Source: a virus
Taxonomy: Duplodnaviria > Heunggongvirae > Uroviricota > Caudoviricetes
Reading direction: 5' to 3' (one strand)
Virus record (IMG/VR): IMGVR_UViG_2681813146_000002
DNA length: 47,946 nt
Of the stretch, positions 16,950-32,143 are shown in pieces. The translations under genes were made by a program, and so were the position numbers. Below the pieces are notes generated by a model. The model saw nothing but the letters and a program-made list of their open reading frames with translations. It did not search any database and had not been told where the DNA came from. How positions within the stretch are numbered: the stretch's first letter is position 1; each line of letters opens with the position of its first letter.

Positions 16950-17012
16950 ACACAATGCGCAAAGTGTCATTTTGACACTTTGCGAGTGTTAATATTGTGC
17001 GAGGAGGGTGCT

Positions 17013-17285
17013 ATGACGGGTTATGAATTGAAATTATGGCGTCGTGGGATGAACTGGACGCAGGAGCGAGCCGCCGAAGAATTTGGGATATCGTTGGCTA
17101 CATATAAGCGATATGAGAAGGGGGAGCCGCCGAGGGTCATTGAGATGGCCATTCGCGTTCTGTCGTTTGACGATATGGTTAAGGATCTTTCACACCTTGA
17201 TAAAGATGCGATTCTGTTAAGGCTGCAAACCCTTGTATGGGAAAAGGTTAAAGTGTCGTCAGAATTGGAACAAGGGATCAAATGA
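17013..17285 (+). CDS. XRE-family HTH protein
   Basis: HTH WTQERAAEEFGISLATYKRYE. Start ATG 17013 after GAGGAGG. Confidence 0.5.
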   Translation: MTGYELKLWRRGMNWTQERAAEEFGISLATYKRYEKGEPPRVIEMAIRVLSFDDMVKDLSHLDKDAILLRLQTLVWEKVKVSSELEQGIK

Positions 17286-18566: not shown

Positions 18567-18594
18567 AGCGCCCAAATCGGGCGCTTTGTTTTAT
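18567..18594. terminator. Bidirectional terminator between convergent genes
   Basis: AGCGCCCAAATCGGGCGCT hairpin with flanking T/A runs. Confidence 0.55.
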
Positions 18595-19733
18595 GGTTTT
18601 GCACCTGCGGCCAGTTTATCCGCAGATATCTTTATCAGTTCCTGTAGTGTCCTGGCTGGTAGGTTTGCATCCAGTACGCTGAGTATGCTGTTGTGATCTG
18701 CCTGGTCGACTACTTTGCCTGTCGGTGGTAGTAGCTTGAGCTGAGGATTCAGGTTTTCGTCAAAGCTGATCAGTGCTCTGGCGTTTCTGAGCAGATCAAG
18801 AAGTAAGGCTGATATCACATTTTCCTGAGTCATTGCTGGCAGATTTAGCGCCGCTTTGGTTTTCCCTGTTGCCTTGTCAAACTCCTTGATTAGTTTCTTC
18901 CTGTAGTTCGGTTCCGTTAATAGCCGATTATGCTCTGTTGCCGCGCGGATAATCGTTTTTTCCTGGTACAGTCGTTTAGCCAGATCACGCTCGTACTGTG
19001 TTTTTAACACGCTGCTGATAGCGTTAAAGGCTTCAATGTAGGCCAGCTTGATATCTTTCACGCCTGGACCGTCGATACTCTCCATGAGCAAGGTAAATCC
19101 GTCTTTTGTCATGCGATAGATTGTTATTTCGCGGTCGCTTCCTTCCAACGGTCGTTGCTCTTTAAAGAAATGACGCGCCGCAGCTGTGCGAGGAATGCGT
19201 AACGCATCGATGGCCATAACGATGGAATTGTTTGTGGTGCTGAATGCTTGGGCAACATCGGCTGAGGTTGTGAGTGGCTCGTTATTGCACACCTTAATGT
19301 AAAACATCGGTTTGGCGTTGAGCGTATCGACAACCTCACGAGCATTGTTTGGCGAGACGGTTACGGTCGCGGCCGTTTGCGCGTTCTGGTTGAAGTAGCA
19401 GTCTTCCAGCCGTTCGAATACATCCCACGCCTGATCGGTTTCGAGCATTTTAGCGTGACGTGCAGCCCCGCGTTCGGTCCAGAGAATTAGGGAGCGGGCA
19501 TTTTTACCAACTAACCCGATTGTTTCGGGTCTGTTCTTGAACTCGCGTAATTCGTTTTTTTCAATTTTAAAGTAATGCTTTCCGGCTACGAATCGCGTCG
19601 TGTTGTTCAGAAAGTTATCAGAAATGTTTTTGATTTTTGTTCCGTATAACTGCGCCAGAAGTTCACTAGTGATAACGGGGATCTGGTTATGCAGGATAGG
19701 CTGTAGGGTGTTAACGGTCGGAAGCGTTTTCAT
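18591..19733 (-). CDS. Antirepressor, Rha-family N-terminal domain with KilAC-like C-terminal region
   Basis: 380 aa. N-terminal region resembles phage regulatory protein Rha by recollection. Confidence 0.55.
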   Translation of the reverse strand: MKTLPTVNTLQPILHNQIPVITSELLAQLYGTKIKNISDNFLNNTTRFVAGKHYFKIEKNELREFKNRPETIGLVGKNARSLILWTERGAARHAKMLETDQAWDVFERLEDCYFNQNAQTAATVTVSPNNAREVVDTLNAKPMFYIKVCNNEPLTTSADVAQAFSTTNNSIVMAIDALRIPRTAAARHFFKEQRPLEGSDREITIYRMTKDGFTLLMESIDGPGVKDIKLAYIEAFNAISSVLKTQYERDLAKRLYQEKTIIRAATEHNRLLTEPNYRKKLIKEFDKATGKTKAALNLPAMTQENVISALLLDLLRNARALISFDENLNPQLKLLPPTGKVVDQADHNSILSVLDANLPARTLQELIKISADKLAAGAKP

Positions 19734-19921
19734 TTTGCACCTCCCATAACTACTTTGGTTACGAGGGAGATTTTTGCGTCAGAAACAGCGTTATCGTTGC
19801 TGGCGATGCGCATAGCTTCGCGCTCGATGATTTCAGCCAGGCGGAATTTATCGGCGTATGAGGCTTTCTTGAGAAGGATCTTTACGAGGTTGACGTAATA
19901 GTCATGGGGTAGGTTTGTCAT
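19730..19921 (-). CDS. Small protein upstream of and coupled to the antirepressor
   Basis: Start taken at the internal ATG after GGAG; the longer ORF extends to 19957. Stop overlaps the antirepressor start. Confidence 0.35.
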   Translation of the reverse strand: MTNLPHDYYVNLVKILLKKASYADKFRLAEIIEREAMRIASNDNAVSDAKISLVTKVVMGGAK

Positions 19922-20215
19922 TGTGATATCTCCAGTATATGGAACTATCACCGCCATTCGAGGCTAATCAAATGGTGGTGAGCCGTACAGGGTTAGCCTT
20001 ACCGGACACAATGACGAACCGGCGCGGATTTCTCCGCCCCTGTACGACCCACCATAATTTGGGCGTAACAGTGCTCTACGCATAAAAAAACCGCTAACGC
20101 GGTATGCGCCATCGTGTTATTCAGGAGGCTAATCCCGGCCGTAGATTTTGCTACGGCTCGGAAAGTGTCCACCAATGGCGCATTTATGTCAATACGGCGG
20201 GATTTTAACAGAGAC

Positions 20216-20232
20216 AACCACATAGTGTGGGT
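20216..20232. promoter_or_regulatory. Operator-like site AACCAC-ATAGT-GTGGGT upstream of the antirepressor operon
   Basis: Matches the AACCAC-N5-GTGGTT family with one mismatch. Confidence 0.4.
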
Positions 20233-20674
20233 TTATTGGTAGGCAGAAACAAAAAAACCGCCCTATTGAGGACGGTTCTTTCGTGCTGATCGGATTCGCG
20301 GTCCTTTCAGCATTACGTTGTTGTATAAACAACCACGCAAGCACAAGCAGCAAGTTAATTTTACCCAAAAGGTAATAATAGTCCACTATTATGCTTCATA
20401 AAATTGTGGTTCTTGTTGTGCCTGCAAACTCACAGATTGTGGGTAGGTTACTGATTTTGTGAAAATAAACGAGTTTTTTCGTTTAATTTCTTTCCTATAA
20501 CTAATCTTAAAATAATCGTAAAATACCTGTGGACCTTCCCGCCGATTCGCACCCGGGCACCGACTTTAGGGGAGGATTCTCCGTTGCCGTACATGCAAGC
20601 ACAAGCAGCCGTGCTTGCTCTCGCGTTGTTTTCGTCGGTGGGGATGCCGTGAAACGGCCTGTAAGGGCCATACA

Positions 20675-20797
20675 ATGAAAAAATACTGTATGTGTATTTT
20701 TATCGTTGTTACTGGAGCTTTGTTTACGCCACATGGGGAGGGTTGGAAGATTACTGATAACGCTCTGAATGTGACGATAAACATTAGCAGCAAGTAG
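20675..20797 (+). CDS. Small hydrophobic peptide (40 aa), candidate membrane toxin or moron peptide
   Basis: MKKYCMCIFIVVTGALFTPHGEGWKITDNALNVTINISSK after an AAGGG ribosome-binding site, followed at once by a strong terminator. No Hok motif. Confidence 0.3.
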   Translation: MKKYCMCIFIVVTGALFTPHGEGWKITDNALNVTINISSK

Positions 20798-20802
20798 CGA
20801 TT

Positions 20803-20826
20803 AGGCCCCTTCGGGGGCCTTTTTTA
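20803..20826 (+). terminator. Rho-independent terminator
   Basis: AGGCCCCTTCGGGGGCCT hairpin followed by TTTTTT. Confidence 0.65.
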
Positions 20827-21047
20827 TGGTTGAATTTAAACGCTGGAGCGCATTAAACCTTTCAGAACTGCTTCACGTACCCATTCTGGCCTGGTAGATA
20901 GCAGGGCAAATAAGCAACCAGCTTGCAGCCGTTTGAGGTCGGTTAGACGAGTTTTCAGTAACCGTGTATATTGTTGCTCGGACATAACAAATTCCCCTTG
21001 TTGTGTCGCGACGGCCAACAGTTGGCGCTGGAGGCCGTCACCTTCTC

Positions 21048-21296
21048 TTACTTCTGGTTGTATTGAGCCTTGAGTAACTCAAAAGATTTTGTCAGCACTT
21101 CTTTCAATGACATATCCATTGAGCTGGCGAACGTTTTGTACTCGCGTTTAAATTCAGGGTCGACGTTAAACGCCATTTGTGCCCCACCTGATTTGGTTCT
21201 GGTCGGCGTTTCAGTCGGGTCGAAAACCTGCGGTTGTTCGATTGATGGCGGTACGCCTTTGCTGTTCTTTTTCGGTGGTTTTGATGGTGCGGCCAT
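21048..21296 (-). CDS. Centromere-binding partition protein, ParG-like (ribbon-helix-helix)
   Basis: 82 aa with a disordered basic N-terminus and a C-terminal RHH-like segment. Immediately downstream of the ParA-like gene. Confidence 0.5.
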   Translation of the reverse strand: MAAPSKPPKKNSKGVPPSIEQPQVFDPTETPTRTKSGGAQMAFNVDPEFKREYKTFASSMDMSLKEVLTKSFELLKAQYNQK

Positions 21297-22518: not shown

Positions 22519-22610
22519 GCGTAGCCTCTTTTATACTTTCACATGTTGTCAAAACCACAAAATGTGGTTTTTTTGAGCGTAGAAATGCACGGCTTTCGCC
22601 GTGCTGTGTA

Positions 22611-23299: not shown

Positions 23300-23425
23300 A
23301 CATTACCACATTTAGTGGTTTTCACATGGTAAGACGAGAGGTGGACCACAAATAGAAGGTTATTTTTTGTTTTGCCCATTGAAAAACTCACGATATGTGG
23401 TTTTAATACCACATATCGTGGTTTT
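23300..23425. promoter_or_regulatory. Divergent immunity promoter/operator region
   Basis: Operator-like sites 23304..23320 and 23407..23423, plus a perfect 12-bp inverted repeat CACGATATGTGG/CCACATATCGTG at 23389..23420. A further site lies at 22553..22569. Confidence 0.55.
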
Positions 23426-32067: not shown

Positions 32068-32143
32068 GGCCCCTTAGCTCAGTGGTTAGAGCAGGCGACT
32101 CATAATCGCACGGTCATCGGTTCAAATCCGGTAGGGGCCACCA
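32068..32143 (+). tRNA. tRNA with anticodon CAT (Met, or Ile2 if lysidine-modified), CCA encoded
   Basis: Manual cloverleaf: acceptor GGCCCCT/AGGGGCC, D-arm GCTC..GAGC, anticodon loop CTCATAA, T-arm with TTCAAAT loop, discriminator A plus CCA. Confidence 0.8.

Follow-up and report, generated by a model that had tools for sequence, protein, structure and literature searches.

RNA-regulated antirepressor and toxin modules in an ORF-poor region of an Escherichia coli phage-plasmid: a C4/IsrK-type leader beside a divergent timPR locus

What is carried by 873 bp of a phage-plasmid in which hardly any protein can be read? The question is raised by positions 19958-20830 of IMG/VR virus record IMGVR_UViG_2681813146_000002, a stretch of 47,946 nucleotides (nt) that was analysed at its full length and is called the window in what follows; it represents a myovirus-type phage-plasmid of Escherichia coli of roughly 48 kb. 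The initial annotation, made from the letters alone, had described here a structured noncoding region with several hairpins, a direct repeat and a hydrophobic peptide of 40 amino acids (aa), and had thought of a small-RNA locus, of something like a type I toxin–antitoxin system or of a moron peptide. The first two ideas are supported, as C4, isrK and a TimR-like small RNA (sRNA) were identified, and a timP/TimR pair was recognised by Rfam, by TimR pairing and by matches of the peptide to TimP. As regards identity and mechanism at the RNA level, the region very probably consists of two independent RNA-regulated modules, the C4/IsrK leader of an antirepressor operon and a divergent timPR. The first is an immI-type antirepressor operon that runs on the minus strand from 20192 down to 18591. 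The second is a timPR type I toxin–antitoxin system, divergent from the known copies yet genuine by every computable feature. What the analysis shows is family membership, the anatomy of both modules and the covariation of all their pairings.

A covariance search, one of the checks suggested at the outset, was run as an Rfam scan of the whole window at curated gathering thresholds. It gave three full-length matches inside 19958-20830, to ryfA, C4 and isrK, all above their thresholds (Table 1). Matches to RNAI, Phe leader, PhrS and Atu_C8 that overlap the TimR and timP terminators were below threshold and were rejected. DNA similarity alone would have missed the ryfA family, because a sensitive blastn search with 20240-20830 returned the plasmid lineage only and did not find chromosomal ryfA among the E. 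coli genomes; it was the covariance model that found the family. The scarcity of coding sequence was real as well. In a six-frame list of open reading frames (ORFs) those contained entirely in 19958-20830 do not exceed 75 aa, and only the 40-aa ORF is convincing; the ORF-poor stretch runs from the 75-codon frame ending the antirepressor operon to a small gene at 21048-21296, which bounds it on the right. Terminator-like sites between 19500 and 21400 number 10, against 2.2 expected.

The ryfA RNA is known as the mRNA of a toxic small protein of the inner membrane, TimP, and is repressed by a divergently encoded sRNA, TimR, which pairs its 5' end with the 5' leader (PMC7667032). This timPR system of Salmonella Typhimurium and E. 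coli K-12 (annotated in K-12 as timR b4811, ryfA b4440 and timP b4812, between sseA and sseB), together with RyfA1/RyfB1 of Shigella dysenteriae, is the closest known system to the second module. The likeness extends over the entire locus. An mRNA of about 300 nt (fold z-score -4.3) fits the ryfA model end to end, and its ORF starts at transcript position +147, where Salmonella has +145 (PMC7667032). The N-terminus of the peptide is hydrophobic and signal-like and has the form MK..C.CI..IV.GAL.T; the Shine-Dalgarno sequence lies in stem-loop 4 of a leader in which sites 1 and 3 form the pseudoknot and sites 2 and 4 interact; and a divergent sRNA of about 100 nt places its extreme 5' end on stem-loop 2 and ends in an intrinsic terminator.

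The 40-aa ORF and the strong terminator directly after it (20803-20820 plus a T-run) are where they had been placed, and both fall inside the full-length ryfA match. Judged by its sequence, the peptide is a divergent member of the TimP family, and it is predicted to be a membrane-targeted toxin. That it is not Hok-like, as was first remarked, agrees with this assignment, and no hok/sok or other type I toxin–antitoxin match was found in Rfam, even at E values up to 1. The ORF is intact in every copy examined, and plasmids that share no more than ~83% identity in the 5' leader still agree at 39/40 or 40/40 residues of the peptide; at the nucleotide level, 2-4 differences in the 123 nt of the ORF go along with leaders differing at ~17% of positions. 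A search for homologues of the peptide gave two clusters only, since ORFs so small are seldom called, and one of them (cluster P0002) led to one useful divergent locus.

The description of the peptide as flanked by terminators had to be given up on its upstream side, where the GC hairpins belong to the timP 5' leader as its stem-loops 3 and 4, elements of translational control and no terminator. We aligned eight timP mRNAs (alignment A1) and counted pairing in stem-loops 1-4 as well as in the terminator and the pseudoknot of sites 1 and 3, with the site positions in the leader taken from PMC11228461 and PMC13000454. The published elements are paired in 92.8% of the alignment cells, against 35-48% when the partners are slid by 1-3 columns, and compensatory changes were found in eight pairs, a number reached by none of 500 shuffles. 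Pairing is complete (100%) in the 7-bp pseudoknot, where two pairs are compensatory relative to K-12, in the 5-bp site 2-4 interaction that frees the Shine-Dalgarno sequence, and in the core of stem-loop 4 that sequesters it, which shows a CG to UA covariation; the terminator pairs are conserved, with two compensatory changes. In Salmonella the pseudoknot, the site 2-4 interaction and the leader elements have been established experimentally (PMC7667032, PMC11228461, PMC13000454), and timP is activated there by an RNA structural switch and not by nuclease processing (PMC11228461, PMC13000454). Here too, stem-loop 4 would hide the Shine-Dalgarno sequence, and translation would need both the pseudoknot between sites 1 and 3 and the site 2-4 interaction.

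The direct repeat reported at about 20337 and 20597 exists as the 15-mer GCAAGCACAAGCAGC, at 20337-20351 and 20595-20609, so that the second position first given was 2 nt off. It is the DNA signature of toxin–antitoxin pairing, because the 5' end of TimR pairs with timP stem-loop 2 at this place. From ~20351 the minus-strand RNA reads GCUGCUUGUGCUUGCGUG, then forms two hairpins and closes with a terminator and U-run (fold z-score -5.4), and its alignment with K-12 TimR takes in the central CUG..AAGG.CCGCGAA.CC..CAG hairpin as well as the terminator. The putative promoter would put the transcription start at ~20351, the first base of the pairing segment, an arrangement repeated in relatives. 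The helix itself has 18 bp, one of them G-U, and covers mRNA positions +64..+81, where the K-12 pair uses +64..+82. When the timP leader was shuffled 300 times no 18-bp helix arose, the maximum being 17, reached twice. Moreover, six pairing sequences, K-12 included, occupy the same position, with 19 of 25 columns changed on both sides and the pairing kept. Through its 5' 18 nt the divergent sRNA would pair with stem-loop 2 and prevent translation of timP.

Several features nonetheless set this module apart from the chromosomal timPR between sseA and sseB. It lies on a phage-plasmid beside parA, and its nucleotide identity to K-12 is ~68% in the 5' leader and 52% in the ORF, too low for sensitive blastn to make the link. 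The pairing sequence differs from the chromosomal one and matches it poorly: the duplex of K-12 TimR with this timP is predicted at -17.7 kcal/mol, compared with -35.5 for the cognate pair. TimR of the L011 and L050 types, like that of the chromosome, is predicted not to rescue this timP. The spacer between TimR and timP measures 178 bp here and 400 bp in K-12, whose IS128 RNA element (RF00125, 261 bits, in the timR–ryfA spacer at 2016-2224 of our K-12 locus L004) is not present in this spacer. A 16-nt stretch of the K-12 IS128 region is perfectly complementary to ryfA +2..+17, and the plasmid copy has no such element. In its general design the module also recalls hok/sok of plasmid R1, where a small membrane toxin is encoded next to a partition system on a plasmid and its mRNA is held inactive by leader structure together with a short-lived antisense sRNA; unlike hok/sok, it has no mok-like coupling ORF and its peptide is unrelated. 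The divergent layout is that of tisB/istR-1, shoB/ohsC, zor/orz and dinQ/agrB (PMC7667032), chromosomal type I systems with the same mode of action; the module is a member of none of these families.

As for the left part, the region had been described as lying between the antirepressor operon and the partition locus. That is too simple, as the three left hairpins are the leader of the antirepressor operon itself. All three are present and act on the minus strand: one closes C4, one terminates isrK and one is the first hairpin of isrK (Table 1). C4 begins 25 nt beyond isrK and was matched in all eight related loci scanned; the Rfam family c4-a1b1 (RF03163) overlaps isrK at 36.7 bits (E 2e-7), below its gathering threshold of 46.7. 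Further downstream, the antirepressor gene product matches PHROG anti-repressor families, down to 1e-66, and the ant ATG shares bases with the leader-ORF stop codon (ATGA at 19733-19730). The leader ORF occupies the position of P1 icd and Gifsy-1 orf45; it has no Pfam or NCBIfam family and is a positional analogue of Icd only.

In the immI operon of phages P1 and P7 (c4–icd–ant) the first ORF is translationally coupled to ant. C4 RNA lies there in the leader of its own target operon, its a' and b' segments complement the a2/b2 targets at the ribosome-binding site or start of the small ORF, a second target copy, a1/b1, lies upstream of c4, and allelic a/b variants would give hetero-immunity. 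The same elements are found in the window, and for the mechanism of C4 repression we follow Citron and Schuster 1990 as cited in PMC2864571 and PMC7313666. In an alignment of eight loci, C4 a' occurs as AGGCUAA, ACGCCAA or GUUCCAA, with partners in a2 just 3' of C4 and in a1 in the loop of isrK hairpin 2; C4 b' occurs as GUCAUUGUGU, UCAUGAUGA or CCAUGGUGA, with partners in b2 across the leader-ORF start codon and in b1, which lies in the linker of isrK. There are thus three types of a and three of b, each covarying between C4, a2/b2 and isrK a1/b1, and they occur in mixed combinations among the loci. This pairing of a'/b' with a2/b2 and a1/b1 is the logic of P1/P7 immI, and the allelic types look like what hetero-immune relatives would show.

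One promoter, whose -35 TTGACA is invariant in all relatives, would thus drive the isrK-type leader RNA, C4, the 63-aa leader ORF and the antirepressor gene, in that order. The exposed a' and b' segments of C4 would pair with a2 and b2 and block translation of the leader ORF, and therefore that of ant too, because the leader-ORF stop codon overlaps the ant start. Unlike P1, the small ORF is not detectably Icd, the antirepressor is of the ORF6N/Rha type and not Ant1/2, the repressor has helix-turn-helix (HTH) and S24 domains and is not C1, and a1/b1 forms a separate RNA of isrK type that has a terminator to itself.

A self-terminated isrK, followed within ~25 nt by a C4-family structure and then by an antirepressor gene, is also the arrangement of isrK–orf45–anrP in Gifsy-1 (PMC4825925), and there, as here, the middle of isrK is complementary to a stretch ~100 nt downstream. 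In the Gifsy-1 locus (L010 34131-34329, minus strand) we found isrK followed by a C4-family RNA, c4-a1b1 overlapping isrK above threshold (likewise in the Logan contig L011), and a2/b2 where the ribosome binds anrP. The sequence published as the partner of IsrK, at transcript nt 150-180 in "orf45", falls inside the C4 structure of Gifsy-1. For Gifsy-1, and for no other case, IsrK is known to bind Hfq and, when given in trans, to turn on translation of the antirepressor (PMC4825925); C4 is not mentioned in this 2016 paper. Since the isrK RNA presents a1 and b1, and since its published partner sequence lies inside C4, we infer that isrK is a decoy relieving C4 repression. It carries each target a second time, with a1 in the loop of a hairpin and b1 in a linker that is single-stranded, ends at its own terminator and would thus be able to compete for C4. 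The published activation of anrP by IsrK may itself be titration of C4. The two operons are not identical, as a 63-aa ORF follows C4 here and a 45-codon ORF overlaps C4 in Gifsy-1, and as the window is a plasmid prophage with no isrJ downstream and no antQ upstream, unlike the integrated lambdoid prophage.

The antirepressor operon may also be tied to the primary repressor of the element, an HTH + S24 peptidase protein of lambda CI-like type. The palindrome CCACA-N3-TGTGG occurs at 20218-20230, 22555-22567 and 23409-23421, that is, ~25 nt upstream of the isrK/C4/ant -35, shortly after the end of the CI-like repressor gene and between the divergent repressor and early genes; at two mismatches or fewer there are four matches, against 0.63 expected. 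It is a candidate operator and may bind this repressor. If it does, the antirepressor operon would be under repressor control, as with Op51 in phage P1. In many relatives a 573-bp HTH gene stands between the isrK promoter and the TimR terminator (L003 2453-3025, L001 4473-5045, L006/L007 956-1528); in these the two transcripts converge and would both end at the TimR terminator hairpin, and the window lacks the gene at ~20195-20250. The annotation of relatives L005, L008 and L009 treats the ORF6N antirepressor gene (the equivalent of 18591-19733) as a pseudogene that is either fused with a Rha-family gene or interrupted by one, which suggests that the antirepressor cargo behind a conserved C4 leader is being swapped.

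Table 1. Features of the two RNA-regulated modules, in window coordinates
Feature	Position	Strand	Evidence or remark
Antirepressor gene (ant), ORF6N + Rha domains, last gene of the immI-like operon	18591..19733	-	Pfam ORF6N 1.4e-20, Phage_pRha 2.7e-12
63-aa leader ORF, coupled to ant	19730..19921	-	RefSeq automatic coding sequence in identical plasmid (WP_000183351); phrog_7886, function unknown
b2 target of C4, CACAAUGAC	19917..19925	-	covers leader-ORF ATG 19919-19921; complementary to C4 loop b', covaries in relatives
Leader-ORF Shine-Dalgarno GGAG	19930-19933	-	
a2 target of C4, UUAGCCU	19961..19967	-	directly 3' of C4; complementary to C4 a'; three a-types covary across relatives
C4 antisense RNA	19971..20059	-	Rfam RF01695, 70.8 bits vs gathering 45, E 7e-12, full length
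C4 closing stem, CCGTACAGGG / CCCTGTACG	19984-19993 / 20039-20047	-	
C4 a'	19993-19999	-	
C4 b' loop	20006-20015	-	
isrK-type RNA, counterpart of the a1/b1 leader	20084..20157	-	Rfam RF01394, 68 bits vs gathering 50, E 2e-12
isrK own terminator stem, ACCGCTAACGCGGT	20090-20103	-	
isrK b1	20108-20118	-	in linker
isrK a1	20127-20133	-	in hairpin 2 loop
First isrK hairpin, GCCGTAG / CTACGGC	20139-20145 / 20151-20157	-	
Putative promoter of isrK–C4–ORF63–ant	20164..20192	-	-35 TTGACA 20187-20192; -10 GACACT 20164-20169; read from sequence
TimR-like antitoxin sRNA, ~102 nt	20250..20351	-	5' 18 nt pair with timP leader; body aligns with E. coli K-12 timR b4811
TimR intrinsic terminator hairpin, U-run after	20257-20277	-	
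Putative TimR promoter	20358..20385	-	-35 TGGACT, 16 nt, -10 TAAAAT (promoter scan)
timP putative -10 TAAAAT	20519-20524	+	
timP (ryfA) toxin mRNA	20529..20825	+	Rfam RF00126, 142.3 bits vs gathering 80, E 1e-36, model positions 1-296 of 296
timP pseudoknot (sites 1-3)	20558-20564 and 20634-20640	+	
timP site 2	20586-20590	+	
timP stem-loop 2 / TimR site	20592-20609	+	
timP site 4	20654-20658	+	
timP Shine-Dalgarno AAGGG	20663-20667	+	inside stem-loop 4
40-aa small hydrophobic TimP-like protein, MKKYCMCIFIVVTGALFTPHGEGWKITDNALNVTINISSK	20675..20797	+	BLASTP vs E. coli K-12 TimP 36% identity, E 4e-8
timP intrinsic terminator	20803..20826	+	7-bp stem, 6 G-C pairs, then T-run

A number of observations weigh against the reading as two working modules of these families and are best stated together. 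Against NCBIfam NF040796 (toxic_TimP) the peptide scores only 23 bits (E 7e-5, positions 1-40 of 40) and does not reach the cut-off of 45 bits, for which reason RefSeq leaves the 40-aa ORF unannotated; its C-terminal half is unlike chromosomal TimP. The site 1-2 interaction described for the inactive state in Salmonella looks weaker here, with three of five pairs when judged by eye in the K-12 register. Not all pairing variants are orthogonal, since the types of the window, L001 and L006 cross-react in silico at -31 to -35 kcal/mol. In the antirepressor operon, the isrK promoter has a poor match at its predicted -10, and tblastn with the 63-aa leader ORF gave matches in three Yersinia phages only and none in P1 or any other phage. 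As for isrK, its proposed role as a C4 decoy is drawn from complementarity and from a re-reading of the published Gifsy-1 data.

The timPR locus was found in 61 plasmid records, three Yersinia phages, about ten IMG/VR viral contigs and two Logan contigs. By blastn of 20240-20830 it is present on plasmids of 72 of the 5426 complete E. coli genomes, 73 of the 74 places in these 72 genomes being on plasmids. A scan of the IMG/VR viral contigs with a 15-nt core returned 44 matches, ~10 of them real, and a scan of genome contigs with a 21-nt TimR core brought up no true locus, its five matches being due to chance and lying in unrelated metagenome-assembled genomes. In all seven related plasmid and phage loci scanned together ryfA, C4 and isrK occur side by side, and so they do in L011, where timPR lies on the opposite side of the rha–C4–isrK operon, still near parA; parA is adjacent to timPR in both arrangements.

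The first 24 kb of the window show 97% identity over >80% of their length to Yersinia phages vB_YpM_39/41/44, close relatives of the element that were isolated as virions. A stretch identical to the window is held by the 48,077-bp plasmid pP136-7, which has repA, a RelE/ParE toxin–antitoxin pair, ParA and the CI-like repressor. ParA and an 82-aa gene follow directly downstream of the region, while repA and the RelE/ParE pair lie upstream. This type II pair (a RelE/ParE-family toxin and an HTH antitoxin, in the 16980-17285 region of the window) has been annotated both in the plasmid with the identical stretch and in the Yersinia phage, and a HigB2/RelE-ParE + HTH pair lies ~3 kb upstream of ant in L002 (1934-2580). 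Together with timPR, the element would therefore carry two toxin–antitoxin modules besides par. A tRNA gene was also detected at 32068-32140 on the plus strand (67 bits).

What, then, is timPR doing on a phage-plasmid? Plasmid addiction, in the sense of post-segregational killing or stabilisation, appears to us the most likely role, even if it falls short of being probable in absolute terms. We prefer it because timPR sits in the maintenance region beside parA and matches host chromosomal TimR poorly. The weak predicted binding of K-12 TimR to this timP suggests insulation from the host system, which an addiction module would need. Nonetheless, deletion of timR in Salmonella de-represses TimP without a growth defect (PMC7667032), and so a plasmid present in a single copy may deliver too little toxin for post-segregational killing.

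It is less likely, yet worth serious thought, that timPR is functional in phage defence or in the exclusion of related phage-plasmids by abortive infection, and not in stabilisation. Its position beside the immunity and antirepressor region, which varies as in L011, the existence of several pairing specificities, and the fact that a type II toxin–antitoxin pair and par already serve maintenance would all suit such a role. On the other hand, deletion of timPR in Salmonella left P22 infection unchanged (PMC7667032), and timPR adjoins parA whichever way the region is arranged. It is improbable, in our view, that the ryfA-like transcript is chiefly a noncoding regulatory RNA that tunes host stress or virulence, with the 40-aa ORF incidental or weakly translated; the locus would then be an accessory gene of the phage-plasmid and no toxin–antitoxin pair. 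Three reports (PMC8205139, PMC10664665, PMC13188913) do describe phenotypes of the RyfA sRNA in uropathogenic and avian pathogenic E. coli, and native TimP expression without a growth defect in Salmonella (PMC7667032) points the same way. However, the peptide is almost invariant while its leader diverges, all elements of timP translational control are kept by compensatory change, and the cognate antisense sRNA co-evolves with the leader, which would be unexpected if coding were dispensable.

Decay of the region into a remnant, with RNA genes still recognisable and no longer expressed or functional, would be very improbable. Such a state could account for RefSeq records that annotate none of these RNAs, for a peptide below its NCBIfam cut-off and for the poor -10 of the isrK promoter, but it does not sit well with an ORF intact in every copy, helices all maintained by covariation, promoter-like elements at the expected distance from both RNA 5' ends and two strong terminators. 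Finally, the idea that the minus-strand RNA at 20250-20351 is an RNAI- or CopA-like antisense RNA of replication or copy-number control can be dismissed, as the weak Rfam RNAI match that suggests it (20250-20345, 26.7 bits, E 0.013) is far below the gathering threshold of 47, repA is ~5.5 kb away, and the sRNA aligns with K-12 TimR and complements timP stem-loop 2 with its 5' end, and no rep leader.

Plasmid addiction thus stays the role that we favour. Taken jointly, that mobile timPR is an addiction module with at least five pairing specificities, insulated from chromosomal TimR, and that the isrK family is the a1/b1 decoy of C4-type immunity operons, is a combination that we put forward only tentatively and consider rather doubtful as a whole.

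All three RNA families and the toxin family have already been described, and curated models find them. The initial annotation had named none of these families, nor had it seen the leader role of the minus strand, the repeat as a toxin–antitoxin pairing site or the leader hairpins as translation control. What is new is that a divergent lineage of timPR has its place on a phage-plasmid, that several pairing types of this lineage co-evolve, and that isrK is explicitly equated with a1/b1 of the C4 operons. In the open-access literature we found no paper on timPR on plasmids or phages, and the Gifsy-1 IsrK paper does not draw the link between isrK and a1/b1, nor does the 2010 paper in which c4-a1b1 was defined, as far as its main text goes.

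Three RNA genes and a toxin ORF are accordingly missing from the RefSeq records of this phage-plasmid family, which ~1.3% of the complete E. coli genomes contain, that of reference strain ATCC 25922 included. The region offers a clear natural example of what would be hetero-immune C4 variants, and it also shows IsrK and the a1/b1 element of C4 operons to be one thing. If the isrK family does act as a decoy of C4, activation of anrP in Gifsy-1 would be a titration of C4 that went unrecognised in the 2016 study. As to timPR, its place in a plasmid-maintenance region and its natural pairing variants make the locus a test bed for stabilisation and for orthogonality to the chromosomal system. Plasmid addiction, if true, would give timPR a first clear function and a tractable natural system.

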